Part shown: positions 1 through 19,459 of the stretch, in pieces | Numbering within the stretch: the first letter of the stretch is position 1 | Layout of the letters: every line of letters starts with the position of its first letter | NCBI GenBank assembly: GCA_963753595.1 | Contig: CAVWCX010000001.1 | Location: 151,797-215,796, forward strand | Reading direction: 5' to 3' | DNA length: 64,000 nucleotides | Source of the DNA: Candidatus Methanoperedenaceae archaeon | GTDB lineage: Archaea; Halobacteriota; Methanosarcinia; Methanosarcinales; Methanoperedenaceae | Notes under the pieces: model-generated | Told to the model about the DNA's origin: nothing | Database searches by the model: none | Seen by the model: the letters and a program-made list of their open reading frames with translations, nothing else | Program-made: the position numbers and the translations under genes

Positions 1-3000
1 TCACTTTCCCCTAAACCACCTGCGAATAAAGCAGGATCGAACTATCCATCCAGCGGAGCAGTGGATCACTCAAGCTTTGGTATAACTGATAATGATTGCA
101 AGAACTGCCATGGCAGTAACCTTGCTGGCGGTGAGAACATGGTTGGATTCACTCATAATGTAGCCCCGTCTGGTGGAAGTGGCTCATGCGATTCCTGCCA
201 CGCACAACCGCCCAATGGCGCTTCAAGATATAATACACAAGGCGCTCATACACTACACTCAGCAGCAGGATATGGCAATGTAGCAATCACCGGCTGCAAT
301 TACTGTCATTCGACAGAAGGCGCAAATGAAGCCGGCCATCCCGGAACATTCAATGATGCCACTGTAGTCACTAATTCCTCAGCAACAATCGCGTTATATA
401 CTCCGAACAACCTGAACGGCAAAGACGATACATGCAGTGGTGTCTCCTGCCATACAACCGGTCTTAGCAATGGAGCCAAAGTCGGCACAGCCACCTGGGA
501 CTCCACAACCGGAGCCTGCAGCAACTGCCACTCCACAGTCCCAAGCGGTCTTCCGCCTACAGGCAACCATACCAAACACTACACCACAGAGAACTACCAG
601 TGCGCCACCTGTCACGGCACTAATGCCGATGCAGGGACACAGACCGGTCACAAGACCAATGGAGCAATCGACATATCCTTCACAGGTACACTTGCAACCG
701 GCGGCAGTATCACATCAGGCACATGCGACGTCTATTGTCATTCACCAAACCCCAACGATGTCAAACCCAAACCTGCCTGGAACACATCAACCGTGGTCTG
801 TGGGGATTGTCACAGCCTTCCGCCCACCACAACACGAAATGGTGTTTCACATACGACCAATACTAACTGCGACATCTGCCATGGAACAGGTGCTTCAACA
901 GGCACTCAACTCGGTCACATAGATCGTTCGATCACCACATTGGGAGGCGGCAGTACATGTACAATATGTCATGCCCAGCCACCCAATGATGCAATTGTAA
1001 CAGATCAGCGCAACAATACCGACGGAGCCCATATCCTGCATAAGAACAAAGGCTATGGTGCAGTTGCCGAAACAAGCTGCAACTATTGTCATAACAATGG
1101 TGGAAGCAACGAAGGTGGAGCCCATCCAAACGGTTTGTACAATGTGGTTACTAATTCCTCAGCAACAATCGCGTTATATACTCCGAACAACCTGAACGGC
1201 AAAGACGATACATGCGCGGGTGTCTCCTGTCATACAACCGGTCTTAGCAATGGAGCCAAAGTCGGCACATCCACCTGGGACTCCACAACCGGAGCCTGCA
1301 GCAACTGCCACTCTACAGTCCCAAGCGGTCTTCCGCCTACAGGCAACCATACCAAACACTACACCACAGAAAACTACCAGTGCGCCACCTGTCACGGCAC
1401 TAATGCCGATGCAGGGACACAGACCGGTCACAAGACCAATGGAGCAATCGACATATCCTTCACAGGTACACTTGCAACCGGCGGCAGTATCACATCAGGC
1501 ACATGCGACGTCTATTGTCATTCACCAAACCCCAACGATGTCAAACCCAAACCTGCCTGGAGCACATCAACCGTGGTCTGTGGGGATTGTCACAGCCTTC
1601 CGCCCACCACAACACGAAATGGTGTTTCACATACGACCAATACTAACTGCGACATCTGCCATGGAACAGGTGCTTCAACAGGCACTCAACTCGGTCACAT
1701 AGATCGTTCGATCACCACATTGGGAGGCGGCAGTACATGTACAATATGTCATGCCCAGCCACCCAATGATGCAATTGTAACAGATCAGCGCAACAATACC
1801 GACGGAGCCCATATCCTGCATAAGAACAAAGGCTATGGTGCAGTTGCCGAAACAAGCTGCAACTATTGTCATAACAATGGTGGAAGCAACGAAGGTGGAG
1901 CCCATCCAAACGGTTTGTACAATGTGGTTACTAATTCCTCAGCAACAATCGCGTTATATACTCCGAACAACCTGAACGGCAAAGACGATACATGCGCGGG
2001 TGTCTCCTGTCATACAACCGGTCTTAGCAATGGAGCCAAAGTCGGCACATCCACCTGGGACTCCACAACCGGAGCCTGCAGCAACTGCCACTCTACAGTC
2101 CCAAGCGGTCTTCCGCCTACAGGCAACCATACCAAACACTACACCACAGAAAACTACCAGTGCGCCACCTGTCACGGCACTAATGCCGATGCAGGGACAC
2201 AGACCGGTCACAAGACCAATGGAGCAATCGACATATCCTTCACAGGTACACTTGCAACCGGCGGCAGTATCACATCAGGCACATGCGACGTCTATTGTCA
2301 TTCACCAAACCCCAACGATGTCAAACCCAAACCTGCCTGGAACACATCAACCGTGGTCTGTGGGGATTGTCACAGCCTTCCGCCCACCACAACACGAAAT
2401 GGTGCAACACCACATGCAGGTGTTACGGATTGTGATGTCTGTCACGGTACGGGTGCTAATACAGGAACCCAGAACGGCCATATTAACAGAATTATAGACG
2501 TATCAGGCGGTGGCTGCACAGGATGTCACAGCAATGTTGGTACCGCAAGTCTTGGCCTTCACTCCAATTTAAACGGAACGTCCGCAGTCGATGACGGAGA
2601 TTGCCAGACCTGTCATTTTGCTTCATTCCCAATGGTAACCGGTGCGGCAAATAGTTCCAATACGCATTATTGTCAGGATTGTCATACCAGTGCAGGAACA
2701 GGATCTCCTAAACCGGGTAGTTTAGTATCGGTAAGCCATGGAAAAATCGACTGTAAATGGTGCCATGCGGCAGGCGATCAACCAGCCTCTAAGTATCATT
2801 CGAATAATCTTGGATCACAGCAAGGACCAAAAGGTACAGCAACAGGAGCGAATTGTGCTACCTGCCACGGTGCTAATCTTCAAGATGTATTTAGAGCTCC
2901 GGGAATAACACATTTAGGAGATATTACTACTTGTGGTGAATGCCATAGCGGTGCTAACAATCACTTAGTATCAGCGTTAAGCGATTTTTCCTCTCCAACA

Positions 3001-3618
3001 CTTTCAGGAATACCACTGACAACATCGGTAACGGTCGGAGCACCTGCTCATATCCAGGCTACAGTATCAGACAATATTGTGATGATAGCAGCTGCCCAGT
3101 ATCAGGTAACAAATACCTCAGGAACGGTCATTCCATGGACAAATATGACATCCTTGGATGGATTTAATTCAGCAACTGAAACTGTTATTGCATCAATACC
3201 TACATCAAATCTAATTGGTCCTTATACAGTTAGCATTAAAGGCATGTCTTCAGCATACAAGACTGATCCTTCAAAGCCATATTATCCACTCAATGGTATG
3301 TGGAGCAGCGTTAGTACTGTTCAACTTATTGTTAATCAACCAAAAGGATATGTTAACGGAACAGTTAAAAATGGGACTAATACAATAGCAGGGGCGATAA
3401 TAACCACCAATACAGGTGTTTCCGCGATAACTGACTCGAATGGTAATTATTCCTTGAATCTTGCGTATGGCCCTTATCAATTAATTGCCACCAAGGAGCC
3501 GGAATATTATTTCAACAACAGTGTAAGTGTAGAGGTTTCAGAAATTCCGGTAGATCAGAATATCATCCTGAATAAGAAACCCACTGGAACTATAAGCGGT
3601 ACGGTTAAGAACAAATAA
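1..3618 (+). CDS. Giant multiheme c-type cytochrome, 5'-truncated by the window edge; at least 31 heme motifs; C-terminal Ig-like and carboxypeptidase-regulatory-like domains
   Basis: Frame is open from base 1. Counted 25 CxxCH, 3 CxxxxCH (CSGVSCH/CAGVSCH) and 3 CxxxCH (CDVYCH). The CxxxxCH..W..CxxCH pairs resemble the Geobacter-type domain. Ends KPTGTISGTVKNK. Confidence 0.93.
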   Translation, partial: SLSPKPPANKAGSNYPSSGAVDHSSFGITDNDCKNCHGSNLAGGENMVGFTHNVAPSGGSGSCDSCHAQPPNGASRYNTQGAHTLHSAAGYGNVAITGCNYCHSTEGANEAGHPGTFNDATVVTNSSATIALYTPNNLNGKDDTCSGVSCHTTGLSNGAKVGTATWDSTTGACSNCHSTVPSGLPPTGNHTKHYTTENYQCATCHGTNADAGTQTGHKTNGAIDISFTGTLATGGSITSGTCDVYCHSPNPNDVKPKPAWNTSTVVCGDCHSLPPTTTRNGVSHTTNTNCDICHGTGASTGTQLGHIDRSITTLGGGSTCTICHAQPPNDAIVTDQRNNTDGAHILHKNKGYGAVAETSCNYCHNNGGSNEGGAHPNGLYNVVTNSSATIALYTPNNLNGKDDTCAGVSCHTTGLSNGAKVGTSTWDSTTGACSNCHSTVPSGLPPTGNHTKHYTTENYQCATCHGTNADAGTQTGHKTNGAIDISFTGTLATGGSITSGTCDVYCHSPNPNDVKPKPAWSTSTVVCGDCHSLPPTTTRNGVSHTTNTNCDICHGTGASTGTQLGHIDRSITTLGGGSTCTICHAQPPNDAIVTDQRNNTDGAHILHKNKGYGAVAETSCNYCHNNGGSNEGGAHPNGLYNVVTNSSATIALYTPNNLNGKDDTCAGVSCHTTGLSNGAKVGTSTWDSTTGACSNCHSTVPSGLPPTGNHTKHYTTENYQCATCHGTNADAGTQTGHKTNGAIDISFTGTLATGGSITSGTCDVYCHSPNPNDVKPKPAWNTSTVVCGDCHSLPPTTTRNGATPHAGVTDCDVCHGTGANTGTQNGHINRIIDVSGGGCTGCHSNVGTASLGLHSNLNGTSAVDDGDCQTCHFASFPMVTGAANSSNTHYCQDCHTSAGTGSPKPGSLVSVSHGKIDCKWCHAAGDQPASKYHSNNLGSQQGPKGTATGANCATCHGANLQDVFRAPGITHLGDITTCGECHSGANNHLVSALSDFSSPTLSGIPLTTSVTVGAPAHIQATVSDNIVMIAAAQYQVTNTSGTVIPWTNMTSLDGFNSATETVIASIPTSNLIGPYTVSIKGMSSAYKTDPSKPYYPLNGMWSSVSTVQLIVNQPKGYVNGTVKNGTNTIAGAIITTNTGVSAITDSNGNYSLNLAYGPYQLIATKEPEYYFNNSVSVEVSEIPVDQNIILNKKPTGTISGTVKNK
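370..2404 (+). repeat. Intragenic tandem repeat, 780-bp (260-aa) unit, about 2.6 copies, 8 heme motifs per unit
   Basis: Sequence at 371, 1151 and 1931 starts identically (ctaattcctcagcaacaatc). Copies 2 and 3 differ only at about 1562/2342; copy 1 has a few substitutions near 436-591. Confidence 0.95.
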
Positions 3619-3747
3619 TATTGAATGATAGGAATATATTGGAGCGAAATATTCTTTCGCTCTTTTTTTTTAATGTATTTTTATAAAAAAAATAATGAGA
3701 TAGTTTTATCTATTAAAACGTTCATTTTATTTTTGATGGATAGGATA

Positions 3748-6501
3748 GTGAAGATTTTGAAGCTTAACATATTTTCTGGAATTAAGGATAAAATGGGATT
3801 GTTGCTGATATTGATTGTATTTATTTCTTTTATTCCGATTGTTTTTGGTGCATCTCCGAACGATGCCTGTTTTAGCGGTATATGCCATAGTTCTTCAGGT
3901 CCTACGATCGACCGCGCCCTGTACGACTCCAATCCACATAAAATAATCAAATGTATCGAATGCCATAATAGCTCAACAAATAACTTAGACCCTAGTCATG
4001 GTGTGTTCATAAGACAATTGAACGGCAGCAAGATCACAGGGCCCTTGACAACAAAATATTATTCCCAAAATTTCTCTCTATGTTATTACTGTCATGCAGA
4101 AAAGAATGTCGTAGGATTTTTACCAGGCTGGATACCCTCAGCTAACCACAGAAATACTACCCCGATTATAGTCTCAAACATAGGTACTAATTTTATCAAT
4201 ATTGATCCATTAGGTTATCATAATGGCAGCGAAGGCGGAATTGATTCTGATATACCAACAAATATTCATTGGAATCATCTGGATGCCTTCGGGAGCGAAA
4301 ATTATGGTATTGGAGGCAAATTTGATACTGACATGGATGGAGTAAAAGACTCTTTTCAATCCTGCCCTGCCTGCCATAATGTCCATGGGACAAACTATCC
4401 TAAGATGACAAGAAATGACTTAGCTATTGCTTATTCTTCTGATGGAAATGGAACATTTGGATATATCGGAAGCGAACAATACAACTTTAAAGGTGGCGAT
4501 GTCTTTTGCGGAGGTGGTTGCCACACCTCTGGTATGGGTTATAAATATTATAGAACTGAGATAAAAATATTTCAAGACTGTATCTCATGCCATGTGGATG
4601 GTTCACCCGGAGATGTAAACAGAACTGCTTTCAGCCTGGGTGAGCATCTTAATATTAATACCACTGGTGGTATTAACTCAGTTAATAACACAGACTGCTG
4701 GTCATGTCACTTTAACAGGGATATGAATAGAAGCAACATCCGGCAATGTAATTACTGCCATACTGGAAGCGCCAAACCCGAAGCTCCAAGTGCGCCAATT
4801 ATAAGAACACATGTCTCGGGAGTAAAGATCACTAATTATTCATGCGCGGATTGCCACAGCAAAGTGATCGTTGATCCTGGAACTGGAATTCCTAATGTAA
4901 CATCCCATTATCTAAAGAGACCCAATGTATTAAGTGAAAAGTATTGCGATTATTGCCATGGACCAAATCCAAGCTCTCCATTCAATGCAACAAACAAGAC
5001 TATTCCAGCGTTGAACCATGACAATTCGGACTGGAACGGAAATGCCACATGCCGAACATGCCATTCAAATTCCAGTGTTACGGCCGACCCTCTGGCTAAT
5101 GATTATACATCATTCCATGATCTTACTACTGAATTAGGCGATGTATATAATGGAACGGCAAGGGCAGACTGTTTCATATGCCATGTCCAGAACTCCCCAC
5201 AGTTTGTCGTGGCTCCATATCCCTCGCATGATATTATTGGCTATAACGCAGAGGATTGCCGTAACTGTCATACATCAGGAACGGGCACGGAACCGCAAAA
5301 ACTACACAGCGTAACTGCATCTGCGACTGGCGGGTGCATACCCTGCCATTCAAATAATGCAACCAGGTATTATGCAAACACAAGCCTCTTTGGAAGACAT
5401 GCAAATGTAAATGCAACAGGTGGTCCGAATAACGTAACAGATGATGATTGTAAGACCTGCCACTTTGGTACTGCAGATGGGACGATGAAGATGAAGCTGG
5501 GTGCAGCGAACTCAAGTAACACGTATTTCTGTGAAGCATGCCATACATCAGCAGGTTCAGGACCAATCCATCCAATAGACAACAACCTTATTAAAGATGG
5601 TTTGCAGCATGGTTCAACAAATTGCCAGTGGTGTCATATTGCAGGTGCTCTTCTTCCAAGGCCATTAGATACTACTTTAAGATATCATCCCAGCGGGCCT
5701 CGAGGAACTGCTGCCGGAAAGAACTGCCTGACATGCCATGGTTCCAATCTCCCGGATTTACCTTTCCATGCACCTGGAATAGTACATTCTTCTGATTTAG
5801 ATGGTTGTGGTTATTGTCATTCACAAACAGATAATCATGCTGTTAGCCCATTGAACTCTAACACTCCACCATCGATTTCAGGTTTGTCCGTTACTACAGT
5901 AGTTACTGCAGGCAATGTAGTGCAAGTTCAAACTACGGTAGCGGATGATATGACTCAGATAGCAGCAGCCCAGTATCAGGTCAAGAAAGGTACAACCACA
6001 GTTATTGATTGGACAAATATGACTCCAAAGGATGGAAGATTTGATTCGTCAAGTGAAATAGTGAACACCAGTATTGATACATCAGCCCTCCTGGGTACCT
6101 ACACAGTCAACATCAAGGGCATGGCTTCAGCATACAAGACCATTTTAACATTACCTTATTATCCATTGAACGGTCAATGGAGCGGTATCATCAGCGCACA
6201 ATTTAGTGTTAACCAACCCACCGGGTATAATAATGGAACTGTGAGTGGAAGATTGGATAATGGTTTAGCAGGTGCGGTAGTATCTACCAATACAAGCGTA
6301 TCCACTACCACTAACGAAACCGGATTTTATTCTTTAAGTTTGACAAATGGCACATATCGGTTGACAGCAAGCAAGGATCCGGAATATTATTCAAATAGCA
6401 GTGTAATAGTGACTGTGATAGCACGCACTAATATAACTACAAATATTATTCTTGATTTGAAACCAACAGGCAATATAACTGGTAAAGTTACGAACAAGTA
6501 A
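3748..6501 (+). CDS. Secreted multiheme c-type cytochrome, 19 heme motifs (start uncertain: GTG 3748 or ATG 3793; the ORF track uses 3625)
   Basis: Hydrophobic signal MGLLLILIVFISFIPIVFG|ASP; 17 CxxCH plus CFSGICH and CGGGCH; shared C-terminal module ending KPTGNITGKVTNK. Confidence 0.9.
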   Translation: MKILKLNIFSGIKDKMGLLLILIVFISFIPIVFGASPNDACFSGICHSSSGPTIDRALYDSNPHKIIKCIECHNSSTNNLDPSHGVFIRQLNGSKITGPLTTKYYSQNFSLCYYCHAEKNVVGFLPGWIPSANHRNTTPIIVSNIGTNFINIDPLGYHNGSEGGIDSDIPTNIHWNHLDAFGSENYGIGGKFDTDMDGVKDSFQSCPACHNVHGTNYPKMTRNDLAIAYSSDGNGTFGYIGSEQYNFKGGDVFCGGGCHTSGMGYKYYRTEIKIFQDCISCHVDGSPGDVNRTAFSLGEHLNINTTGGINSVNNTDCWSCHFNRDMNRSNIRQCNYCHTGSAKPEAPSAPIIRTHVSGVKITNYSCADCHSKVIVDPGTGIPNVTSHYLKRPNVLSEKYCDYCHGPNPSSPFNATNKTIPALNHDNSDWNGNATCRTCHSNSSVTADPLANDYTSFHDLTTELGDVYNGTARADCFICHVQNSPQFVVAPYPSHDIIGYNAEDCRNCHTSGTGTEPQKLHSVTASATGGCIPCHSNNATRYYANTSLFGRHANVNATGGPNNVTDDDCKTCHFGTADGTMKMKLGAANSSNTYFCEACHTSAGSGPIHPIDNNLIKDGLQHGSTNCQWCHIAGALLPRPLDTTLRYHPSGPRGTAAGKNCLTCHGSNLPDLPFHAPGIVHSSDLDGCGYCHSQTDNHAVSPLNSNTPPSISGLSVTTVVTAGNVVQVQTTVADDMTQIAAAQYQVKKGTTTVIDWTNMTPKDGRFDSSSEIVNTSIDTSALLGTYTVNIKGMASAYKTILTLPYYPLNGQWSGIISAQFSVNQPTGYNNGTVSGRLDNGLAGAVVSTNTSVSTTTNETGFYSLSLTNGTYRLTASKDPEYYSNSSVIVTVIARTNITTNIILDLKPTGNITGKVTNK

Positions 6502-6783
6502 GATGGTTGATCAAAAGAACATTGTAGATTGAAATAATCCGACATGATGTCACAATGCTATTTTGTGGCTTATTTTTGCTTATAGTAATTATAAAAGGTA
6601 CAGATGGTCCTGGATAGGCTTTTATAATGACTATTTTTTTGTCTCTCAGACTCAGAACTAAAACGATACAAATATATGCAAAGACATTTTAATTAATTAA
6701 AAACATTATAAAACGGGATAGGGTTATTTGTATCAAAGATACATTTAAAAATAATTTAATATAAAATCGATAGGAGAAGTAAT

Positions 6784-8954
6784 ATGAGTTGGATAGGAGA
6801 TAGTCAATCGCATAGCAAAGCAAATTATATGATCACCGCATTTTTGATTTTGACATTGTTATTATCGTTTTCATTTATAACCATAAATCCAATCCAGGCA
6901 AAATCGAATATTAAAAATCATAATAATATTAATGGAAATATAACGGATACGGAATGCATAATCTGTCATCCAACACAAGGAACACTATTCCAATCAGAAT
7001 TGAATCAATTGGATAAGCCTTTAATCGAAAATGCATCCAATATTAATTCATTGCTTCAAGTCGGGGAAAATTATACTGCGATCCTTACTTCCGGACAAAC
7101 ACCTTACCAGCTCGGTCCATTTTTCCGCAGTGGAGCTAATGGTTGGAGCTGGCTGGATACTGGTGCCTGGGGAACAGATAGGCAGAAAAATCTTATCCTG
7201 CTTTCAATATTTGATAATTCTACCGGAAGCATAAAACCTGTCCAAGGATTGACTTCATGGTTATCCTGGCCGCAGGCCAGTTTTAGAAATCATAGCGGGA
7301 CATATAGCTACAAAGCAGATAATGGTCCATCTCCTATAACTATACAGGGAAATTATCCGGATGCCAGTGAATTCTGGATGATTAAAGAGATCAACTTAAG
7401 CGGACTTAGCACTGCAACTCTTAATTTCTGGACATGGTATTCGATGGAAACAGATTGGGATTATGGATATGTTGCGATATCTTCTGATGGAAATATCTGG
7501 ATAAATCTCCCGGGAAACAATACTACAAATACAAATCCTAATGGCAATAATCTGGGAAATGGAATAACCGGTAACAGTGGTGGAATATGGGTATATGAAA
7601 CGATGGACTTGACATCATATGTCGGAAAAAAGATGTTGATCGGATTCAGATTTGTGTCAGATGCAGCTGTAAATGAAGAGGGAATGTATATAGATGATAT
7701 TACTGCAACCGGAGGATTTAGTGATTATGCAGAAACTCTTATTGAAATAAAAACCCTGAGTGTCAATGTTACGTATCCTCGCCTGGCAATACTGAATCCA
7801 ACAGATCCGATGACGAGCGCAAGCACGTTACAGTATAATCCATACGTTCAAAAAGTGGAATTGCATGAAGATATAAGTCATCCTGGCACATACGCTGGAT
7901 ATTTCCAATACGAACCATTTGGAGGCCAATATTCAGGAAAATATACCGTTTATTTTGATACTGCAATAAACGGCGAACGGGTTATCGGCAATACAACATT
8001 CGATACTACTATTTTTGGTTGCCAGGATTGCCACAATAAGAATTATAATGGTGCTGAAACGAGTTTTGTTCATGCGGATGGCGGAGGAATGCAGTCATGT
8101 GAATATGTATGTCACAGCGGATCAAGAGGTTTATATGACAATGCATTTATGGGGCCGCCTCTTCCGGCAAATCCAATACATGTGCATGAAATGAAATTCG
8201 GACACCAGGGAGGATATCTGGATGGTGCATATTATTCTCAGCCGCCGTATAATGTTCCTTCGCATGTAACTGAAGTAAGTTGTGTACAATGTCATACATC
8301 GTTCATTCATGATAATACAGGAAGCGATACTGCAAAAATTGGAAATTACACATTATACGGTACAAATATAACTTTTTCTTCTGGTACACACAGCAGTTTG
8401 ACATGTGGGCAATGTCATGGGACTTTAGATTATCCTGCGATACCTCAGGATCAATATAGTATAACAAATAAACTCGGAAATAATAGTCGTTCTTTTTCGT
8501 CCTCTGAATCATTTACAGATACTTATGAAGTAGATGTGAATGGAATTGATAATCTTACGATAGATGTGCATGCTAACGATGGTTCTACGAAACCTGTTGC
8601 CATATATGTTATTGGGCCGGTAGATAATACAACAACTGCTATACAGGGGCCAAATGAGTATGGAAATCCATACTATATAACCCAAAGCCTTTCCACACCC
8701 ATCAATGTGAATGTAGTTGGCCCATTTACTGGAACATGGTTAGTCAAGTTATATTCGACACAAGAAGGAGTTGTGGATTATACAATAACCAGCAGTTATC
8801 CTATTGAGAGAAAACCAATAATAAAAATACCGGAATGTAATGAATGTCATAATTCTGGTTCTTCAGACAAAACATATGCAAAAGATCCTATACCAAATTG
8901 GAATCCCGGATTTGCCCACGTAGATACAAACAACGATGGTACCCCGGATGTTCA
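6784..8954 (+). pseudogene. N-terminal part of an IS-interrupted multiheme cytochrome (signal peptide, jelly-roll InhA/MAM-like domain, PPC-like domain, 6 heme motifs)
   Basis: CIICH, CQDCH, CEYVCH, CVQCH, CGQCH, CNECH; the frame runs into the IS after ...GTPDVQ. Confidence 0.88.
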
Positions 8955-10684
8955 GAGGCTGTCCGATAATTAACTGAAAAACTCTCCGATTTTTCCATAA
9001 TTCCAAATTATAATCAAGCCCATTGCTTGCGAAATAATTTCAAAACATTTATATCATACAAATACAGTTTTTAAATAAATATGACTTTCTATAAAGACCT
9101 CAAAGACCAGGAACTGCTCTTACCTCCAAACATTCGTGATATGATACCAAAAAATCACATCTGCCATCTGGTTGATAAAATAATCCAGAATATGGATCTA
9201 TCTGATATCGAAAAGGAATACGAAGGAGCAGGACACCCCGCATATCATCCAAAACTCATCCTCAAGCTTCTGATATTGGGTCAAATAGATGGAGTACGTT
9301 CATCAAGGATAATAGCAAAAAATGCTAGAGAGAACGTGGTATACATTTACCTTGCAGGTCTTCTCCAACCTGATTTCAGGACGATAAGCGACTTTCGGAA
9401 AAACAATCTTGAAATGGTCAAATCATCATTTCATGAAGTTGTAAAATTCGCAAAAGATCTTGGCATGGTATCTCTTGGTCACATATGCATTGATGGAACA
9501 AAAATAAAAGCCAATGCATCAAATCACAGTGCAGTAACAAAAGATGATTTTTTAAAATTGAAGGAACTCGTTGAAAGAGAACTGGAAGAAGGCATCAGAA
9601 TAGACGAGGAAGAGGACAGGATCCATGGTGATAAGAATATCGATGAGCTGCCAGATAACATCTTTGACAAAACGATAGCGGAAAAATTGAAAGAGAAATA
9701 TCAGTCAGGGAGCAAAGAACAAAAAGAAAAAATCAAGAAACAGGTTGATAAGATCGAAAAAGAAATCGAAAAATCAGAGAGTGCCATCAGTGCTACTGAT
9801 CCTGAAAGCAGGTTCATGCCAAATAACAAGAAGGTCACTGAATATTCCTATAATCCTCAGATAACAGCGGATTCTTCTTTTGGGATAATCATTTCCAACG
9901 ATGTCACGTCAGAGGTAAGGGATGCAAATCAGCTTAAGCCTCAGATAATACAGGCAGAAGAGAATGTTGGAACCCTTCCGGAAGGTACGAAGGTGAGTGC
10001 TGATAATGGATATTCAAGCAGCAAGAATCTCAAATTCATGAAGAAAAAAAAGCTGGATGGCTATATCCCGGATGAAAAAACGGCATCAAACCTGAACAAA
10101 AATGAAGGAAAACCAGAAAACCCATTCGGTAAAGAGAATTTCGATTATGACCCGATAGAAGATTGTTTCATTTGCCCCAATAATCAGAAACTGACGTTCC
10201 GTTTTGAGTATGTGGATATTGCCAAAAACAGAAATGTGCGGATTTATAAAGGCACTCAGTGTAAGCAATGTCCTGATCGTAAAAAATGTTCAAAGAACTC
10301 TCGGGATGGAAAAGTGATCAAGAATTATGAGGGGATGGAAGAGGAAAGAAGGAAGATGGCTTCTAAATTGATGTCAAAAGAGGGAGCATTGACATATCAG
10401 ACGAGGAAAAAGGTCGTGGAGTGCATCTTTGGTCATATCAAGAGGAATCTTGGGTTCAGGGAATTTCTGTTGAGAGGGATTAATGGGGCGAAAATTGAGT
10501 TCAATCTTACCTGCATTGCTTCAAACCTGAGAAGAATGTGGAACTTTTTGAATGGATTTATTGAAGTAAGATGTTAAATTGGAGAAGAAGTATCGTTTTT
10601 TTTTGTTTGTCTGAAAAATTAGGCAATTATTGCTGAAACATTGCTTGAATAAACTGTATTTGATATCAAATGTCGGTCAACCTC
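8955..10684 (+). mobile_element. IS1182-family insertion sequence, 1730 bp, with a 5-bp target-site duplication GTTCA
   Basis: Left end GAGGCTGTCCGATAAT vs reverse complement of right end GAGGTTGACCGACATT; GTTCA at 8950-8954 and 10685-10689. Confidence 0.92.
9081..10577 (+). CDS. IS1182-family DDE transposase
   Basis: GHPAYHP N-terminal motif, PDFRTISDFR, IDGTKIKANAS, TDPESRFM, ADNGY, a Cys cluster and VECIFGHIK. Confidence 0.92.
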   Translation: MTFYKDLKDQELLLPPNIRDMIPKNHICHLVDKIIQNMDLSDIEKEYEGAGHPAYHPKLILKLLILGQIDGVRSSRIIAKNARENVVYIYLAGLLQPDFRTISDFRKNNLEMVKSSFHEVVKFAKDLGMVSLGHICIDGTKIKANASNHSAVTKDDFLKLKELVERELEEGIRIDEEEDRIHGDKNIDELPDNIFDKTIAEKLKEKYQSGSKEQKEKIKKQVDKIEKEIEKSESAISATDPESRFMPNNKKVTEYSYNPQITADSSFGIIISNDVTSEVRDANQLKPQIIQAEENVGTLPEGTKVSADNGYSSSKNLKFMKKKKLDGYIPDEKTASNLNKNEGKPENPFGKENFDYDPIEDCFICPNNQKLTFRFEYVDIAKNRNVRIYKGTQCKQCPDRKKCSKNSRDGKVIKNYEGMEEERRKMASKLMSKEGALTYQTRKKVVECIFGHIKRNLGFREFLLRGINGAKIEFNLTCIASNLRRMWNFLNGFIEVRC

Positions 10685-12046
10685 GTTCAATGCAGGATGT
10701 GCCACGATGCGATGCACAACATAACGATCAAGGATTGTCAAACATGCCATACCAGAGCACCAATCACCCACCCAATTCCAGACCCCTCTTTTTCCCTATA
10801 TACGCAAAGCCAATGCCTCGCTTGCCATGGTGATCCGCACAAAGTGACAGCTGCTGGTGGAGGCTGTGTAGGATGCCACTCCAGTCCAGGCACCAGATAC
10901 TATGTCAATACAAGCCTGTTTGCAGGACATGCAAATTTGAATACATCTGACGGTGCAAATAACGTCACAGATGCAGATTGCATGACCTGTCATTTTGGAT
11001 CATCTGACATCATAATGAGCCCGGATGCGGGTCTTGGTGGTGCAAATCACAATAACACCTGGTTCTGTGATGATTGCCACACTGAAGGTGGATCAGGACC
11101 TCTCAAATCAACAATTCTAAAATCTGTTAGCCATGGTTCAACAGATTGTAAATGGTGTCATATTGCGGGGGACCCTCTACAAAGACCATTAATTAATGAA
11201 AATGAAACATTGAGATATCATCCCAATGGACCTAAGGGAACTTCGGCTGGACAGAATTGCTTAACCTGTCATGTATCTGGCAATCTTCCTGACCTGCCAT
11301 TCCATGCACCTGGAGAAAGCCATTCAACCACGACTACAGATGATTGTAGTGAATTTTGCCACCAAAATTCTGATCCTCACTGGGTCACTCCTTTAAATGC
11401 AGGGACTCTTCCAACTATTTCAGGTTTAACAGTAACCACGCCAGTCACATCAGGAACACCCGCTATAGTTCAAGCTACAATAAAGGATGATTATATGCAG
11501 ATAGCAGCAGCACAATATCGAGTTACTGATGCTTCAGGGGAAATAATTCCATGGACAAACATGACTCCAGCCGGAGGAAGATTTAGTTTATCGACACAGG
11601 GTGTTTCTTCGAATATAATCACCTCGAACCTGAAAGGCACATACACGGTATATGTCAAAGGGATGGCTTCAGCTTATAAGACGAATCCATCAATCCCTTA
11701 TTATCCGATGAATGGGCAATGGAGTAGTGGTGTTTATAGTGCTCAATTTAAAGTGGAAGAACCAGAAGGATATGGTAATGGAACGGTTTATGGTATCCTT
11801 GACCAAAAAATTGCAGGAGCTATAGTATCCACAAATACCAGCGTTTCTACAATAACAGACCAGAATGGGGCTTATTCATTGAGCCTTCCAAATGGAACGT
11901 ATCGGTTGACAGCAAGCAAGGAGCCTGAATATTATTCAAACAGCAGCATAATAGTGGCGGTGACGGCGTTTACCACGGTAACTCAGGATATTATTCTCAC
12001 TCCTAAACCAACGGGAAATATAAGCGGGACTGTCAGAGTTAAATGA
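10685..12046 (+). pseudogene. C-terminal part of the IS-interrupted multiheme cytochrome (9 heme motifs plus the shared C-terminal module)
   Basis: Removing the IS and one target copy restores GAT GTT CAA TGC AGG ATG TGC CAC (DVQCRMCH) in frame; ends KPTGNISGTVRVK. Confidence 0.9.
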
Positions 12047-12262
12047 GCACTCGTGAGGTTGAATTATTACATGTAAAATATAATGTAACAAAAATTCATG
12101 CAATGACTTTGAATAAAAAAAGATAATTTGAAAATAAATGGCAAAAAAAGGCAATTTTAACCTCGCCCAAATTTTTTTGCTCAAGTGGTAATATTCGCTA
12201 TACTCCCAATAACTGTAAGGTAAAATAAGAAATCTTAAATATCCGGACGTGGATTACGATTT

Positions 12263-12628
12263 ATGTTTTCGAATAATTTAACCAGAATAATTGTATCTCT
12301 ACTGTTGGTGTTTTTTGTTTTTAGCGCAGCAACAGATGCAGCAACTACAACTACCTATAGTGGAGTGACAACAACTTATGTTGGCAACATCAGAGGCGGT
12401 GTAACGGCAGCCTACAGTGGCATAAACTCAAGCGGAAGTGCGCAACCTGGTGAAAATGTCACTGATACAGTCAAAACACCTATCCCTGTTGCTACAGTAA
12501 CTGAAAAAGCAAGTCAAACAGAAACAGGTAAAATACCCACAACTCCATCAGAAAAGGCTTCCGGATTTGAAGTTGTTTTCGGAATGTTGGCCATAAGTAT
12601 TCTATGGTTTAAACTGAAGAGAAGATAA
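12263..12628 (+). CDS. Small secreted Thr-rich protein with a PGF-CTERM-like (archaeosortase) C-terminal anchor
   Basis: N-terminal signal; T/P-rich linker; ends ASGFEVVFGMLAISILWFKLKRR (xGF, hydrophobic helix, basic tail). Confidence 0.8.
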   Translation: MFSNNLTRIIVSLLLVFFVFSAATDAATTTTYSGVTTTYVGNIRGGVTAAYSGINSSGSAQPGENVTDTVKTPIPVATVTEKASQTETGKIPTTPSEKASGFEVVFGMLAISILWFKLKRR

Positions 12629-12939
12629 TTCCTGGCGATTTCCAGAAAAGTAATAGTTTGAGATAATACTATACTAATTCAGCCATATGTGGCCTGAGCA
12701 ATCATATTTTACTATTTGACAACATCAGTGTATATGGACAAATCAGAAGCTGAGAGTTTCACCTTGGGGGTGCGCCGGATGGCGGTGGATATGAGATTTT
12801 TCCAAACGTCTTATAATGATTATAACAATTATTATTTATCCCATTCAATAAATTTAAGTAGAAAGAAAGGGTACGTAAAAACAATCGTCGTTTTCAATAA
12901 TCGTAATTTGAAAATGTTTTACAATGGATAGGATAGGAT

Positions 12940-15732
12940 ATGGATCATAAAAGTTACGTGGTATTTAAAATGAAAAATACGATCGAAACTGGAATTTTAT
13001 TAATTTTGTCAATACTGCTTTTAACCAATGTGGCAAGCGCTGCGTACACGGGCTGGGTGGCCCCGAGCGCAAATTCAGGCGGATCAGGGGTTTCAAATCC
13101 AACTTATGCTTACGTTGATACTACTACATATGCATCTTTCTCCAATGCTGGTTATTGGAACTGGTATGGTTATGCATTATCCTCAATTCCTTCGGGAAGT
13201 ACTATAGATGGTATTGAAGTAAACGCAAAAGGACGTGAATCTTCGTCTGGTTGTAGTAGTTGTTATATGCGGTTGCGGTTAAGCTATGATGGCGGTACGA
13301 CCTGGACAAGTTATATCAATACGGCATCTTCATCATGGACAACTACCATCTCGGATCATATTGCTGGAGGCCCGGCTAATAAATGGGGGCGCGAGTGGAC
13401 AAGAGACGAGATAGTGAATAATCTTAGAGTTCAGGCGTATTGGGTTGGCAGTAGTACTTCAGGACGTCTTACCTATCTTCCTGTGAAAATTTATTATACT
13501 GAACCAGTCGATATAACTCCCCCTGTAATTACATTATCAGGTTCAAGTTCGGTGACCGTCGAAGCAGGTTCCGTATATACCGATGCGGGAGCAACTGCAC
13601 AGGACAATATTGATGGCAACATTACTTTATCCATTGTAACAGGCGGTCTCCCGATCAATACGAACATCCTCGGAACTCACACAGTCACTTACGATGTGAA
13701 TGACTCTAATGGCAATGTGGCGATCCAGGTTTCAAGAACTGTTAACGTTGTTGATTCAACTCTCCCTGTAATTACGTTATCAGGTTCCAGTCCTGTTACC
13801 GTCGAAGCAGGTTCTGCATATACCGATGCGGGTGCAACAGCCCTTGATAACTATGATGGTGATCTTACTTCTTCCATCGTAACAGGAGGTCTCCCGATCA
13901 ATACGAACATCCTCGGAGCTCACACAGTAACTTACGATGTTACTGACTCTAATGGCAATGCAGCGATCCAGGTGACAAGAACTGTTAACGTTGTTGATTC
14001 AACTCTCCCTGTAATTACGTTATCAGGTTCCAGTCCTGTGACCATCGAGATCGGTTCTTTATATACCGATTCAGGGGCAACAGCATTGGATAATATTGAC
14101 GGTGATATTACCTCTTTTATAGTAACGGTCAATCCTGTAAACACAGCAATTATTGGAACATATACTGTCACCTATAATGTAAAAGACTCAAGCAACAATA
14201 ATGCAGATCAGAAAACAAGAACGGTCAATGTAGTGGATCTAACTCCACCAGAGATCACCTTAAACGGGAATAATCCAGAAATTGTAGAGGTAGGTTCAAC
14301 CTATACTGATGCCGGAGTCACAGTTACAGATAACTACGATACTGGTCTCTTGGCAACAATGACTGGAAGTGTCAATACAGCAGTTTTGGGAGAATATATA
14401 CTGACTTACAATGCAGTGGACTCTTCAGGAAATGCAGCCATTATGAAAACAAGAACAGTAAATGTAGTGGATACAACCGGGCCTGAGATCACCTTAAACG
14501 GCAATAATCCTGAGACTGTTGAGGCAGGTTCAACTTATACTGATGCCGGAGCCACAGTTACGGATAACTACGATACTGGTCTCATACCAACAATGACTGG
14601 AGCGGTAAATACAGCAGTTGTAGGGATATATACACTGACTTATAATGCAGTTGATACTTCAGGAAATGCAGCCATTATGAAAACAAGAACTGTTAACGTT
14701 GTTGATACAAATACACCAATAATTACGTTATCAGGTTTCACTCCTGTGACCGTCGAAGCAGGTTCAGTATATACCGATGCGGGAGCAACTGCACAGGACA
14801 ATATTGATGGTGACCTTACTTCATCCATTGTAACAGGAGGACTTCCTATCAATACAAGCGAACTCGGAGCTCACACAGTTACTTACGATGTGACTGACTC
14901 TAATGGCAATGCAGCGATCCAGGCGACAAGAACGGTTAATGTTGTTGATACAACTTCCCCTGTAATTACTTTATCAGGTTCCAATCCTGTGATCGTCGAG
15001 GCAGGTTCCGTATATACCGATTCCGGGGCAACTGCACAGGACAATATTGATGGCGACATTACTTCATCCATTGTAACAGGAGGTCTCCCGGTCAATACAA
15101 AAGTCCTTGGAGCTCACACAGTTACTTACAATGTGACCGACAACAGTAGCAATTCAGCCGTCCAGGTGACGAGGACTGTTAACGTCGTTGATACGACTTC
15201 CCCTGTAATTACTTTATCAGGTTCCAATCCTGTGACCGTCGAGGCTGGTTTTTTCGTATATACGGATGCGGGGGCAACAGCTCTTGATAACTATGATGGT
15301 TACCTTAATTCATCCATCGTAACGGGAGGTCTCCCGATCAACACGAACATACTCGGACCTCACACAGTTACTTATGATGTGGCCGATTCTAATGGCAATG
15401 CAGCGATCAGGGTGACAAGAACTGTTTTTGTTACCTCAACACTTCCGAGTGTAAGGCAAATTAACGGCACTGTCATCGATAGCGCGCACACACCCCTTGC
15501 AGGAGTAACAGTTTCAACAACAAACGGAATTTCATCAATGACAGATGGATCCGGAAAATATTCACTTATTGTCGGCCAGGGATCATATCCATTGACTGCA
15601 TCGTATGATATCAGATATTATACGAATAGGTCTGTGACCGTATCCACAACTGGATTCACAAGTGTGACGCAGGATATTGAACTTGTATTGAAACCAACAG
15701 GAAATATAACCGGTATTGTAAAAAGTAATTAA
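12940..15732 (+). CDS. Secreted surface protein with 8 DUF5011/HYR-like Ig repeats and a C-terminal carboxypeptidase-regulatory-like domain (start may be 12970)
   Basis: Signal peptide; 8 repeats DxTxPVITLxG...YTDAGATAxDNxDG...TVTYxVxD...TRTVNVV; ends KPTGNITGIVKSN. Confidence 0.88.
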   Translation: MDHKSYVVFKMKNTIETGILLILSILLLTNVASAAYTGWVAPSANSGGSGVSNPTYAYVDTTTYASFSNAGYWNWYGYALSSIPSGSTIDGIEVNAKGRESSSGCSSCYMRLRLSYDGGTTWTSYINTASSSWTTTISDHIAGGPANKWGREWTRDEIVNNLRVQAYWVGSSTSGRLTYLPVKIYYTEPVDITPPVITLSGSSSVTVEAGSVYTDAGATAQDNIDGNITLSIVTGGLPINTNILGTHTVTYDVNDSNGNVAIQVSRTVNVVDSTLPVITLSGSSPVTVEAGSAYTDAGATALDNYDGDLTSSIVTGGLPINTNILGAHTVTYDVTDSNGNAAIQVTRTVNVVDSTLPVITLSGSSPVTIEIGSLYTDSGATALDNIDGDITSFIVTVNPVNTAIIGTYTVTYNVKDSSNNNADQKTRTVNVVDLTPPEITLNGNNPEIVEVGSTYTDAGVTVTDNYDTGLLATMTGSVNTAVLGEYILTYNAVDSSGNAAIMKTRTVNVVDTTGPEITLNGNNPETVEAGSTYTDAGATVTDNYDTGLIPTMTGAVNTAVVGIYTLTYNAVDTSGNAAIMKTRTVNVVDTNTPIITLSGFTPVTVEAGSVYTDAGATAQDNIDGDLTSSIVTGGLPINTSELGAHTVTYDVTDSNGNAAIQATRTVNVVDTTSPVITLSGSNPVIVEAGSVYTDSGATAQDNIDGDITSSIVTGGLPVNTKVLGAHTVTYNVTDNSSNSAVQVTRTVNVVDTTSPVITLSGSNPVTVEAGFFVYTDAGATALDNYDGYLNSSIVTGGLPINTNILGPHTVTYDVADSNGNAAIRVTRTVFVTSTLPSVRQINGTVIDSAHTPLAGVTVSTTNGISSMTDGSGKYSLIVGQGSYPLTASYDIRYYTNRSVTVSTTGFTSVTQDIELVLKPTGNITGIVKSN

Positions 15733-15920
15733 CGAAAACATCCTGCAGGATCGTATTAAATTAATGTTCCTGCAGGACCATTTGTATTTTTGAGCCCAGA
15801 TATTGAAGAGGAAATTGAACTCTTTTGAAAACTATCTTTTGAAAACCGAAAAGACTAATAACAGGAAGTTTTAAACATATCCGAAATAGCCAAAAAATAA
15901 CGGATAGGTGTGGTTAATAA

Positions 15921-17708
15921 ATGATACAATGTAAAACATATAGAAGATATCAGATCTTCAAGAAGGTTATCGAACTAAGTATTGTGTTATTTGTCCTGTT
16001 GTCTGGCGGGGCACTTGGTGCAACAATAAACCAATGCGGCAATATTGATTCACCAGGCGACTACGTACTTGGCCAGGATATCTGGAGCACAGGGAACACG
16101 GCAGTAACGTCCTGCATTAATATAACGTCAAGCAATGTGGTTTTTGACGGTGGTAGCCATTATATTATTGGCAATTCAGCAGAAGTCGGATCGATCGGGG
16201 TTTACGTGAATAATCCAGCAAGCACTATTACAAATGTAACTGTAAATAATGTGAACGTTACCCGGTGGGACTCCGGAATTTATCTGCGGAATTCTTCTAA
16301 TAATAATGTCACAGGCAACAATGCCTCAAATAACTCAAATGGGATCAACCTGTCTAATTCAAACAATAATTATATTTATAATAATTATTTTAACAATTCA
16401 AATAATGTTATCATTGACTCAAGTGTAAATTATTGGAATACAACAAGACGATCGGAAAAAAACATCATCAATGGCTCTTTTATAGGGGGCAATTTCTGGG
16501 CAGACCCTGATGGTAATGGCTGGAGCCAGACATGCACGGTCAATAATTTCTATGGGATGTGTGATTCACCATACGTTATCGATCCTGCCAACAAAGATTT
16601 CCTGCCGCTTACGAAATTACTGCCAACGGCAAGGTACATTACCGGTAAAGTACTTGATAATGTTACTAAACTGGGTATTGCTGGCGTGAATGTATCTCTT
16701 AATAACAGCAACTCGACTATCACTGATGATGATGGGTTGTATTTCTTCGTGGTAGGGCCAGATACATTTGAAATTACGGCGACTTTTGATATGACGTATT
16801 ATACGAATAATTCGGTAGTCATTTCGACAGTATCAAATCCTGTTGTGGAGCAGGATATTTTACTTGTTAAGAAGCCAACAGGAACGATAACAGGTAAGGT
16901 GTCCGGATACACAATGATAACAATATCTTCACCAGTGAATATCTTTTACCACACGACTGAAATTCCATTGATCGTCTCTTGCGACAAGCCAGCCAATTCC
17001 TGGCAATATAGCCTGAATGGGGCAGCTAATGTCACATTCACACCACCTGCTACTATAACTGTTTCACAGGGACAGAATAACCTGATAGTATATGCACTGG
17101 ATTCAACAGGTAAATGGGATTCAAATTCAGTTTCATTTTCTGTGGATTCGATACCTCCGGCATCTGTGGATAACCTTCACAATGTAAGCTATGCCTTTGA
17201 TTATATCAACTGGACATGGGCTGATCCGGCAGATGAGGATTTCCAAAAAGTGCTGGTGTATCTTGATGGCGTTCTTAAGGGCGAAGTTCCAAAAGGAGTA
17301 ATGTATTTCAATGCTACTGGCCTGGAACAGGCAACTTACACAATTGGTATAAGAACAGTGGATATCAATGGCACTGAAAATGCGACCCTGAGGACGCACA
17401 CAGCAGCCACAATTCTTCCGGAAGGAAGGTACATTAACGGTACAGTAATGGAAAAGGGCACAACAAACGGAATAAAGGGCGTTAATGTGACCACCAATAC
17501 ATTAGTTTCAACATTGACGAATGAAACAGGGTTCTATTCACTGTCCCTTCCTTCGGGCTCATTTGACCTTACGGCAAGGCTTGAGCCAGGATACTATACC
17601 AATAGTTCGGTAACGGTATCAACAGAATTGAGAGCTGTTACGATACAGAATATTGAACTTGAAATTAAACCAACAGGAAATATTACAGGAAGTGTTAAAC
17701 ATGCTTAA
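15921..17708 (+). CDS. Secreted surface protein: NosD-like parallel beta-helix, Ig/FN3-like domains and two carboxypeptidase-regulatory-like domains
   Basis: GIYLxNSSNNNV and NNYIYNNYFNN beta-helix motifs, GGNFW; internal KPTGTITGKV and terminal KPTGNITGSVKHA. Confidence 0.85.
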   Translation: MIQCKTYRRYQIFKKVIELSIVLFVLLSGGALGATINQCGNIDSPGDYVLGQDIWSTGNTAVTSCINITSSNVVFDGGSHYIIGNSAEVGSIGVYVNNPASTITNVTVNNVNVTRWDSGIYLRNSSNNNVTGNNASNNSNGINLSNSNNNYIYNNYFNNSNNVIIDSSVNYWNTTRRSEKNIINGSFIGGNFWADPDGNGWSQTCTVNNFYGMCDSPYVIDPANKDFLPLTKLLPTARYITGKVLDNVTKLGIAGVNVSLNNSNSTITDDDGLYFFVVGPDTFEITATFDMTYYTNNSVVISTVSNPVVEQDILLVKKPTGTITGKVSGYTMITISSPVNIFYHTTEIPLIVSCDKPANSWQYSLNGAANVTFTPPATITVSQGQNNLIVYALDSTGKWDSNSVSFSVDSIPPASVDNLHNVSYAFDYINWTWADPADEDFQKVLVYLDGVLKGEVPKGVMYFNATGLEQATYTIGIRTVDINGTENATLRTHTAATILPEGRYINGTVMEKGTTNGIKGVNVTTNTLVSTLTNETGFYSLSLPSGSFDLTARLEPGYYTNSSVTVSTELRAVTIQNIELEIKPTGNITGSVKHA

Positions 17709-17818: not shown

Positions 17819-19459
17819 ATGAATCAAATGAAAGGTTTTTCTCGAGTGAATAGATTTATTGCGTTGTTGTTAGCTATATCGTTTTTGGTATTGGGGACTG
17901 TGAGTTCAGTATCAGCGGCTGTTACAACTGCAAGCGGTGACAATATAAGCGGTGCATTTGTCAAGCTTGTGGATTATCCCCAGTATAATGCTACGACTGA
18001 TGGTTTTGGGAATTATGCTATCCTTAATGTACCATATGATGGGCTGGCGGGGGGGTCGACATATTCAATAAGAACTCGTGCGGCTGGATTCGCTCTAAAT
18101 ACCAGCACTGTTTTTATTAATGGAGCGAGTGCAACAAAGAATATTGCTTTATTACCGGGATATAAATACACTGCAGCTGGTCAGATATATGGTGGCCAGT
18201 GGAGAACTAATTTCATAATCGGTAATCTGGGGCCCCAAGCTACAACCTTAGATGTTAACTTCATAGATTTGTCAGGTATCACCAGAAATAATTCCGAGGA
18301 TGTAATTTCAAATATGGCCTCGAAAGATTACACCTGGTTTGATAGAGTAGGCGCTATTGAAGGATCAGGAACAATAACTTCAGAACAGTTAATTGACACA
18401 GTAACCTTACAAAGAAGCAGTTCAGCAGGTAAAATAGGATTCTTTGAAGGAACACCATTGAATACAGAAAAAACACAATGGTTTGTGCCAGGTATGATTT
18501 TCTCTGGTCAGTGGAGATCAGGGTTTAAAGTTCTGAATCTTGGAACTGTTGATGCGGATGTGACTATGTATTGGTATAATTCAAATGGTGTTTTGATAAA
18601 CACAATAACCAGAACAATACCTCCAAATGCAGCGCCATATTATGATTGGAATACCTATGGGTTAATTGCAAGCGGGAACTCACCACAAGCAACTGAAGGT
18701 ACGGTTACTATCGTCTCTAACAATGCCCAACCCATCAGTGTAACAGCATCACAGGCAAGTGAAAGCGCAGGAAAATTCGGGTTCTGGAACGGTATTTATT
18801 TGAATGACCAGAAAACAGATGTATTTGTTACAGGTCAATTATGGAATAATCCAGCATGGAGATCAGGCTTTAAAGTAGCGAACATTGGTTCAGTTGATGC
18901 TGATGTAACTATGTATTTCTATAATTCTGCAGGCACTTTGATAAATACTGTGAACAGAATTGTATCTCCAAAAGCATCACCATATTTTGATTGGTATACA
19001 TATGGATTTGTTCCAAGCGGAAATGTTGCAGGCGACGGCACTGTCAGAGTAGTATCAAATAATGGTACACCTATATATGTGGTAGAAAGCCAGGCCAGTG
19101 AAGTTCCAGGGTTTATTGATTTCTATCAGGGTGTAGAAATTAATGGAAATAATACTGCAGGCCTTATAAACTTGAAATTTGGAGGCGGTGAGCGAAGTGG
19201 ATTCAAGATTGCAAATCCTGGGAATTCGCCAATAACTGCTACTATCAAATTCTATAACGCTACTGGAGGACTTCTAAGAACTGAAACCGGTTTTAGTGTT
19301 CCTGCGAAAGGATCGCCATACTTGGCCTGGAATACATATACTTCAGAACCTTCAGGTTCAGTGACTGTGGAAGCAACAAACAGGATAAGTGTTACAGTAA
19401 GCTTCGCAAGTGATACAGAAAGCAAAATGGGTATGTTTAAAGGAATAGCAGTACAATAA
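17819..19459 (+). CDS. Secreted protein: N-terminal carboxypeptidase-regulatory-like domain apparently missing its first strand, then four ~105-aa beta repeats
   Basis: Signal peptide ending VSA; repeats WRSGFKVxNxGxxxAxVTMxxYNxxG...GTVxIxS...GxF; RBS-like GGAG and a TATA-like element near 17760. Confidence 0.8.
   Translation: MNQMKGFSRVNRFIALLLAISFLVLGTVSSVSAAVTTASGDNISGAFVKLVDYPQYNATTDGFGNYAILNVPYDGLAGGSTYSIRTRAAGFALNTSTVFINGASATKNIALLPGYKYTAAGQIYGGQWRTNFIIGNLGPQATTLDVNFIDLSGITRNNSEDVISNMASKDYTWFDRVGAIEGSGTITSEQLIDTVTLQRSSSAGKIGFFEGTPLNTEKTQWFVPGMIFSGQWRSGFKVLNLGTVDADVTMYWYNSNGVLINTITRTIPPNAAPYYDWNTYGLIASGNSPQATEGTVTIVSNNAQPISVTASQASESAGKFGFWNGIYLNDQKTDVFVTGQLWNNPAWRSGFKVANIGSVDADVTMYFYNSAGTLINTVNRIVSPKASPYFDWYTYGFVPSGNVAGDGTVRVVSNNGTPIYVVESQASEVPGFIDFYQGVEINGNNTAGLINLKFGGGERSGFKIANPGNSPITATIKFYNATGGLLRTETGFSVPAKGSPYLAWNTYTSEPSGSVTVEATNRISVTVSFASDTESKMGMFKGIAVQ

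Follow-up and report, generated by a model that had tools for sequence, protein, structure and literature searches.

Why should secreted proteins with mutually unrelated N-terminal parts end in the same short peptide? The question is raised by a 64,000-nucleotide stretch of the genome of a Candidatus Methanoperedenaceae archaeon (assembly GCA_963753595.1, contig CAVWCX010000001.1, positions 151,797 to 215,796; hereafter the window), in which five open reading frames (ORFs) end in a CarboxypepD_reg domain followed by KPTGxIxGxV, three further residues and a stop codon. The fuller C-terminal consensus of the five is ...[QN][DN]I.L..KPTG.I.G.V plus three residues and stop, and a peptide of the tail type is KPTGNITGSVKHA. 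The reading that we favour, with a probability of roughly 0.45, is that of a split domain, in which the tail of each cargo protein would complete in trans the N-terminal beta-sandwich of P0006, a secreted protein encoded in the same gene cluster, and so dock many cargoes on one scaffold. It draws on the conservation of the tail, on gene fusions in a sister species, on gene order and on the co-occurrence of the two partners.

An earlier inspection of the DNA alone (the sequence-only reading) had placed tails at 3577, 6460, 12005, 15691 and 17667 and an internal copy of the strand at 16872, and the translated ORFs, ending at 3618, 6501, 12046, 15732 and 17708, bear these positions out. Its count of five proteins holds for the C-termini but not for the genes, which comprise four intact ones and the 3′ remnant of a cytochrome gene that an insertion sequence has interrupted. 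The window opens within a long plus-strand run of secreted-protein genes, and the tail genes and P0006 are all on that strand. The first tail (3577-3615, module 3304-3615) belongs to the 3′ part of a gene for an 1855-residue multihaem cytochrome (1..3618), the ORF of which starts upstream of the window, and the second (6460-6498, module 6187-6498) to a multihaem cytochrome of 958 residues as listed (3625..6501), whose true start may be the Met at 3793, immediately before the signal peptide. The third cytochrome gene is represented by a 5′ fragment with an InhA-like MAM (peptidase M6-like) N-terminus (6784..8973) and by a 3′ fragment without signal peptide (10670..12046; module 11732-12043, tail 12005-12043), separated by an insertion sequence (9059..10662) that carries a DDE transposase ORF (DDE_Tnp_1_6, 9081-10577) and 12-nt perfect inverted repeats (9059-9070 and 10651-10662). 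The junction ...TPDVQ/CRMCH... is uninterrupted in the homologue of the sister species G021, and intact orthologues of 1196 and 1191 residues are present in two further relatives, G044 and G060. The remaining tails terminate a secreted protein with eight Ig-like (Bact_surface_Ig-like/HYR) repeats (12940..15732; module 15418-15729, tail 15691-15729) and a secreted NosD-type beta-helix protein (15921..17708; terminal module 17394-17705, tail 17667-17705), which also contains an internal module (16599-16901) ending in the internal strand copy (16872-16901).

Some further features of this gene run were recorded. The first cytochrome contains near-identical internal protein repeats in the translation of window positions 1-2700, where shadow ORFs appear in another frame at intervals of about 780 nt (437, 1220 and 2000); G+C content is 0.51 in the first 2 kb of the window and about 0.40 in the remainder. 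Upstream of the window, in the same cluster, a 3684-residue ORF (contig C1, 135602-146656) contains repeated weak CarboxypepD_reg-like units (SGYVFDNFG...GVLVQNGS). Between two of the tail genes lies a 121-residue ORF (12263-12628) with no Pfam match and a sub-threshold NCBIfam likeness to small surface proteins. RNA sequencing runs shared at most 0.08 of the sampled words, and one contig, of 159 nt, was placed from four of the seven listed runs.

A six-frame scan of the 2.89-Mb assembly identified three further terminal copies, in a cohesin protein, an apiosidase-like hydrolase and a subtilase, which brings the genome total to eight, with exactly three residues after the V in all eight. An N-terminal signal peptide could be read by eye in each of the eight tail proteins, and nothing follows the tail in any of them; the absence of a C-terminal transmembrane helix, previously noted from the letters, follows from every ORF ending three residues after the V. 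Pfam assigns the unrelated N-terminal parts to multihaem cytochromes, eight Ig-like repeats and a NosD beta-helix, and the cohesin domain was found solely inside one cargo, the C17 protein. A PF13620 or PF13715 match precedes each tail, mostly slightly under the curated cut-off; for PF13620 (cut-off 32.3 bits), P0003 (34.4), P0005 (42.0) and the C28 protein (32.9) score above it, P0001 (28.2), P0002 (29.6) and the C17 (23.8) and C34 (31.5) proteins below it, and P0004 gives no match. The fold match described below upholds the proposal that a carboxypeptidase-regulatory-like domain is shared ahead of the tail.

Comparison of the modules indicates that the tail is under selection. Pairwise identity among the eight modules of the genome is just 37-57%, yet there is little or no variation in the tail residues K, P, T/S, G, I, G and V. 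The tail codons vary synonymously among the eight paralogues, so this conservation is not the product of gene conversion. In an alignment of 51 module sequences (33-62% identical) from 12 genomes, the tail columns are conserved at 94% (K), 86% (P), 68% (T/S), 96% (G), 100% (I), 100% (G) and 86% (V), which equals the best core positions of the domain. A maximum-likelihood tree of 22 modules, drawn from the window, three other loci of this genome and four loci of G008, G044, G055 and G060 (the C34 module was dropped by a motif filter), splits cytochrome-borne from non-haem-borne modules with support of 100/99, and the grouping within it follows orthologous cargo from one species to another and not the genome of origin; the module has thus diverged along with its cargo while the core of the tail stayed fixed. 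A role in N-glycosylation was considered and rejected, as the NIT/NIS sequon in the tail is just 45% conserved, with T at that position in most other sequences.

The tail is terminal in relatives as well, with a more variable end. A homologue search of 40 relatives gave about 150 rows, with matches at E <= 0.001 in 30 of the 41 genomes. We examined 58 modules, namely the 57 strongest of these matches (E below about 1e-17) and the genome's own C34 copy: 51 end in the tail, one lacks it and six carry the strand internally. The length after the V among the 51 is three residues in 34 cases (four of them identical copies within one genome), two in eight, five in four, four in two, and one, six and eight once each. 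Even orthologues differ, since the NosD protein has three trailing residues in the window and two in G044 and G060, and the cytochrome hit by the insertion sequence has three in the window and five in G060. The exact spacing claimed from the window therefore stands for all eight copies in this genome, but in relatives it is merely the commonest length (34 of 51, range one to eight); likewise, the profile count that had been suggested as a check finds the tail terminal in 51 of 58 strong matches but the spacing to the stop not fixed. A profile search of 1.84 billion representative proteins returned 12,208 matches at E <= 0.001, mostly tandem CarboxypepD_reg arrays, and among the best 150 of these 22 end in the tail, 16 of them with three trailing residues.

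To what does such a strand belong? We modelled the last 104 residues of the NosD protein with AlphaFold2 from a 51-row alignment (mean predicted local distance difference test score, pLDDT, 90.6). The seven-strand sandwich of this donor module superposes in Foldseek on solved carboxypeptidase-D domains, with a root-mean-square deviation of 1.3-1.4 Å over about 80 columns of the transthyretin-like domain 5aq0 and a template-modelling (TM) score of 0.86-0.88 normalised to the target; it also matches the CnaB2 domain 8bdw (E 3.7e-4). In a profile-to-PDB search, the 82-residue 5aq0 domain aligns to profile positions 15-90, and since the alignment ends at position 90 the tail lies outside the solved domain. 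The module's own first strand is complete in the model (residues 12-20, YINGTVMEK, pLDDT about 96), whereas tail residues 92-104 receive no strand assignment (block pLDDT 85 and 73). The tail is therefore predicted not to fold back on its own domain, which has no empty slot, and the complete, confident first strand argues against self-polymerisation. On these points the sequence-only reading fared unevenly. Its view of the tail as an orphan first strand agrees with a tail left unpaired in the monomer model and with the homologues described next, in which its equivalent is strand A of the following domain, and the outcome that it had named as fatal, a tail folding into its own domain, was not seen. 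The supposedly degenerate first strands of the donor domains are in fact conserved (N-G-T-V, 86-100% in 51 sequences), and polymerisation through those domains, as it had proposed, finds no vacancy in them.

Gene fusions point to the partner. Four of the six internal copies belong to the sister species G021, in which the strand runs directly into a domain like the N-terminal domain of P0006. Five or six G021 ORFs on four contigs, cytochromes and a subtilase included, read in the order cargo, module, strand, P0006-like domain and four repeats, and no terminal tail was seen in that genome. The subtilase of our genome aligns to residues 29-480 of the G021 subtilase (E 8e-66), the alignment ending at the tail (...KKPTSNISGRV opposite ...PKLVWNLSGTV in G021), and residues 31-390 of P0006 align to residues 476-813 of the same protein (E 2e-19). 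By alignment, then, the subtilase and P0006 form a Rosetta-stone pair with respect to the G021 subtilase, with an overlap of five residues. In an AlphaFold2 model of the C-terminal 574 residues of the fused protein, the equivalent of the tail (residues 89-98) is a ten-residue strand (block pLDDT 97 and 95) that opens a second transthyretin-like domain with the usual strand pattern, followed by four beta-rich repeats of lower confidence; the alignment for this model was made without the stand-alone acceptors, so the repeat body rests on 3-4 sequences, with pLDDT of about 60-88.

P0006 (17819..19459, plus strand), which is encoded by the next gene after that of the NosD protein and which we regard as the candidate acceptor and scaffold, consists of a signal peptide (17819-17917, with an AxA site assigned by eye), an N-terminal CarboxypepD_reg domain lacking most of strand A (17918 to about 18170) and a body, extending to 19456, of four beta-rich repeats of about 110 residues with weak likeness to DUF5719. 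We define the acceptor family by a signal peptide, a CarboxypepD_reg domain containing GA[LF]VKLxxYPQYN that starts 1-4 residues before the V of strand A, and a variable body. P0006, 12 other stand-alone proteins of the genus and two of a second genus have this architecture, and a signal peptide with an AxA site was recognised by eye in P0006 and its stand-alone homologues. In ten stand-alone acceptors the predicted mature N-terminus, with cleavage placed by eye, falls 1-4 residues before the conserved V, so the mature proteins would lack KPxGxIxG; the truncation is read from sequence alignment and from these by-eye cleavage sites. Depending on the protein, the acceptor N-domain is joined to repeat bodies, to other bodies or to three SLH domains. 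The repeat body also occurs apart from it: in G003 a 944-residue NosD beta-helix protein (L127; ORF 1768-4602 of contig C19) has a P0006-type repeat body fused straight to its C-terminus, with neither CarboxypepD_reg domain between them.

Distribution and gene order connect the two partners. With thresholds of E <= 1e-18 for the donor module and E <= 1e-14 for the acceptor-type domain, 22 of 49 Methanoperedens genomes contain donors and 14 contain the acceptor-type domain; donors are present in all 14 acceptor genomes and the acceptor is found in none of the 27 genomes without donors (Fisher p = 5e-7, for genomes that are related rather than independent and two profiles that share a fold). Thirteen genomes have one stand-alone acceptor each and G021 has fused ones only, donors outnumbering the single acceptor gene by 5-16 to 1. 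In nine of the 13, a donor module on the same strand precedes the stand-alone acceptor by 216-394 nt; among the other loci, one is truncated at the end of its contig and another is preceded by degraded pieces of donors. G044 and G060 share the order seen in the window, with three cytochromes, further genes, the NosD protein and the acceptor. Among 201 genomes of the order, strong donors are confined to Methanoperedens and one genus of another family (two of eight genomes), with one weak donor match elsewhere. Both donor genomes of this second genus have an acceptor, which in one has a four-repeat body; in the other, the signal peptide and N-domain are the same but lead into three SLH domains (E 3e-45). 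The SLH-bearing acceptor (L100/L147, contig C57 of G025) is the sole SLH protein found in that archaeal genome, and SLH as a general anchor was set aside, as it occurs in one ORF of one relative among five genomes searched. The tail is thus a real, selected and lineage-restricted feature, and gene fusion, gene order and co-occurrence all back the N-terminal domain encoded from 17819, which had been named as a candidate partner from the window alone.

The split-domain reading can be spelled out as follows. The tail would be the detached strand A of a transthyretin-like domain, the remainder of which forms the mature N-terminus of P0006. Cargo and acceptor would both be exported by Sec, and cleavage by signal peptidase would leave the acceptor domain only the last 3-5 residues of strand A; KPTGxIxGxV would then be inserted in trans, its I, G and V turned towards the core, and so complete the sandwich. 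In this way up to eight exoproteins (three multihaem cytochromes, the Ig-repeat, beta-helix and cohesin proteins, a glycosidase and a subtilase) could be mounted on one scaffold, and docking in a 1:1 ratio is favoured by an architecture in which the donor domain is complete and there is one acceptor domain. The function common to all would reside in the scaffold's repeat body and would probably consist in anchorage to the cell envelope or the matrix, a plausible role in view of the SLH replacement in one relative, the fusions in cis and the adjacent surface-glycan gene cluster. A bolder version, which we hold a little more tentatively, sees a natural archaeal tag-and-catcher display system: a ten-residue C-terminal strand tag on many unrelated exoproteins would complete a deliberately truncated N-domain of a single scaffold, mounting interchangeable electron-transfer (giant multihaem cytochrome), hydrolytic and adhesive modules on the Methanoperedens surface, with some species hard-wired by fusion, and the invariant lysine that opens the tail could lock the pair covalently.

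The glycan cluster itself (22545-45812) directly follows the exoprotein genes and encodes a WsaF-like rhamnosyltransferase, six GT2 glycosyltransferases, a Wzt/Wzm-type ABC exporter, dTDP-rhamnose enzymes (RmlA, B, C and D-like) and an LPG_synthase_TM protein. A minus-strand gene located between these and the exoprotein cluster (24354-25730) encodes a protein with Schlafen/AlbA_2, HATPase_c_4 and wHTH domains.

Several observations weigh against docking on P0006. Eight donor-bearing genomes show no acceptor, where marker-gene completeness predicts about 1.9 losses; three of them (G008, G042 and G055) are 94-95% complete and have 4-5 donors each, while G011 has one donor on a 1.3-kb contig, G023 has one truncated donor, and G006, G061 and G062 are 63-81% complete. 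Many donors of these genomes lie at contig ends, which implies that the cluster is hard to assemble. In three proteins (the NosD protein at 16872, L053 and L067) internal copies of the strand precede unrelated domains. The split is not clean, as about five residues (xVxxx) are present both in the cargo tail and in the mature acceptor, and if the signal peptide stayed uncut, its c-region together with the N-terminus (V-S-A-A-V, resembling I-x-G-x-V) would make up a full strand and leave no slot. No anchor can be recognised in the acceptor, and searches with Pfam, the PDB, NCBIfam, the ESM Atlas and Foldseek linked its body to no characterised family: the PDB sequence search gave WD40-like noise and NCBIfam nothing, the ESM Atlas gave unnamed bacterial clusters and one 39% DUF5719 cluster, and Foldseek with the 574-residue fused model gave generic multi-sandwich matches only (TM score normalised to the query <= 0.19). 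The SLH-bearing acceptor, finally, comes from a contig about 1.8 kb long, and may be a genuine SLH anchor of an archaeon or else a chimera produced in assembly.

Some of these points would suit an interaction strand with a different partner, which might be the domain edge of another cargo (giving daisy-chain polymers), an S-layer protein or a surface glycan, with the link to P0006 reflecting shared regulation or ancestry. Conservation of the tail where no acceptor was found, the excess of donors over acceptor genes and the large glycan cluster just downstream speak for such a partner. We nevertheless consider it unlikely, as the cargo domains are complete, with a confident strand A and no visible slot, as fusion, gene order and co-occurrence point specifically to a P0006-type domain, and as no other candidate partner emerged.

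The tail might instead be a structural stub left by gene fission of a G021-like ancestor, serving to cap or stabilise the last domain or to shield the C-terminus from proteases without any docking. The overlap with the acceptor does resemble a gene break more than a designed split, the trailing length varies, and the strand has been duplicated as a unit with its domain, even internally before unrelated domains. Against this, the AlphaFold2 model leaves the tail unpacked beside its own domain, one would not expect a mere stub to be conserved more strongly than any other segment in paralogues that have diverged so deeply, and fission alone leaves unexplained a separate gene that starts exactly at the break with a signal peptide and has stayed adjacent; we therefore judge this explanation, too, to be improbable.

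Another alternative, which we rate as very unlikely, treats the domain and tail as a C-terminal signal for sorting or processing that an enzyme or a secretion step would recognise, as in the type IX secretion system (T9SS) or OmcZ: one cassette does occur on unrelated secreted cargo, one tail protein is itself a subtilase, and Methanoperedens OmcZ has C-terminal beta-sandwiches that, in the portion of PMC13748539 available, are cleaved off by a neighbouring serine protease, but the cleavage sites given there follow aromatic residues, unlike KPTG, the modules have no transmembrane helix or basic tail of the sortase or archaeosortase kind and no significant Por_Secre_tail match, the window cytochromes match no solved OmcZ or other PDB chain, and the fusion to P0006 would be left unexplained.

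How does the proposed pair relate to known systems? The CarboxypepD_reg or transthyretin-like domain (PF13620; 5aq0, 1h8l) is the fold of both donor module and acceptor N-domain; known members are complete in cis, and among the best 150 library matches the orphan first strand ends only 22 group members. In engineered split CnaB2 tag/catcher pairs, a strand peptide of about 13 residues completes a truncated beta-sandwich and is locked by an isopeptide bond. The strand and acceptor described here are natural, unlike those engineered pairs. The donated strand in pilus-type donor-strand systems is an N-terminal extension. Donor-strand complementation is described for chaperone-usher pili and for Sulfolobus threads, bundling pili and cannulae (PMC9715654, PMC12337348 and 10.1101/2024.12.30.630787, as far as their available text goes), and the proposal resembles these systems in that a beta-strand of one protein would complete the incomplete beta-sandwich of another. 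They polymerise identical or similar subunits, whereas in the present case the strand is C-terminal, is shared by many unrelated cargoes and would fill a single dedicated acceptor domain; the donor's own fold is complete, and only the separate acceptor appears truncated. Cohesin-dockerin systems with SLH-anchored scaffoldins (PMC9012536, available portion) likewise place a C-terminal module on diverse exo-enzymes and a receptor on a scaffold, and the receptor of one relative carries three SLH domains, but they dock two folded modules, whereas fold completion with one receptor domain per scaffold is proposed here; Pfam finds no dockerin on any tail protein and no cohesin on P0006.

C-terminal signals provide no closer parallel. 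All eight ORFs stop three residues after the V, which differs from sortase and archaeosortase signals (LPXTG, PGF-CTERM), and reading KPTG as LPXTG-like fails on the spacing of the proline and on the absence of a hydrophobic tail after it. The T9SS Por_Secre_tail family has no Pfam match on the modules at E <= 0.01; one weak match (E 7e-4, below cut-off) lies inside the repeat body of a G021 protein. As described in the available part of PMC13748539, OmcZ-type nanowire cytochromes of Methanoperedens are extracellular cytochromes with C-terminal beta-sandwich domains, forming a 'self-inhibitor' region removed by a protease; that region is cytochrome-specific, whereas the present cassette has non-haem carriers too and a partner gene linked to it, and an identity of the window cytochromes with OmcZ was rejected for want of a PDB match.

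The published cytochrome classes of anaerobic methanotrophic archaea (ANME) rely, in the part of PMC9012536 available, on S-layer domains and C-terminal transmembrane helices, neither of which the window cytochromes possess. The tail is not mentioned in the available portions of PMC9012536 or PMC13748539, and full-text searches found no description of it in the literature. The proposed partner is specific and genomically well supported, and a new docking mechanism is plausible, with the species pair of split and fused proteins offering a ready natural control. If the split-domain reading is correct, it would represent a new way of mounting proteins on the archaeal cell surface and would extend the donor-strand principle to heterotypic contacts between cargo and scaffold. 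For protein display it would provide a small pair of peptide tag and acceptor of natural origin and, for Methanoperedens itself, a testable mechanism for organising the extracellular electron-transfer apparatus.

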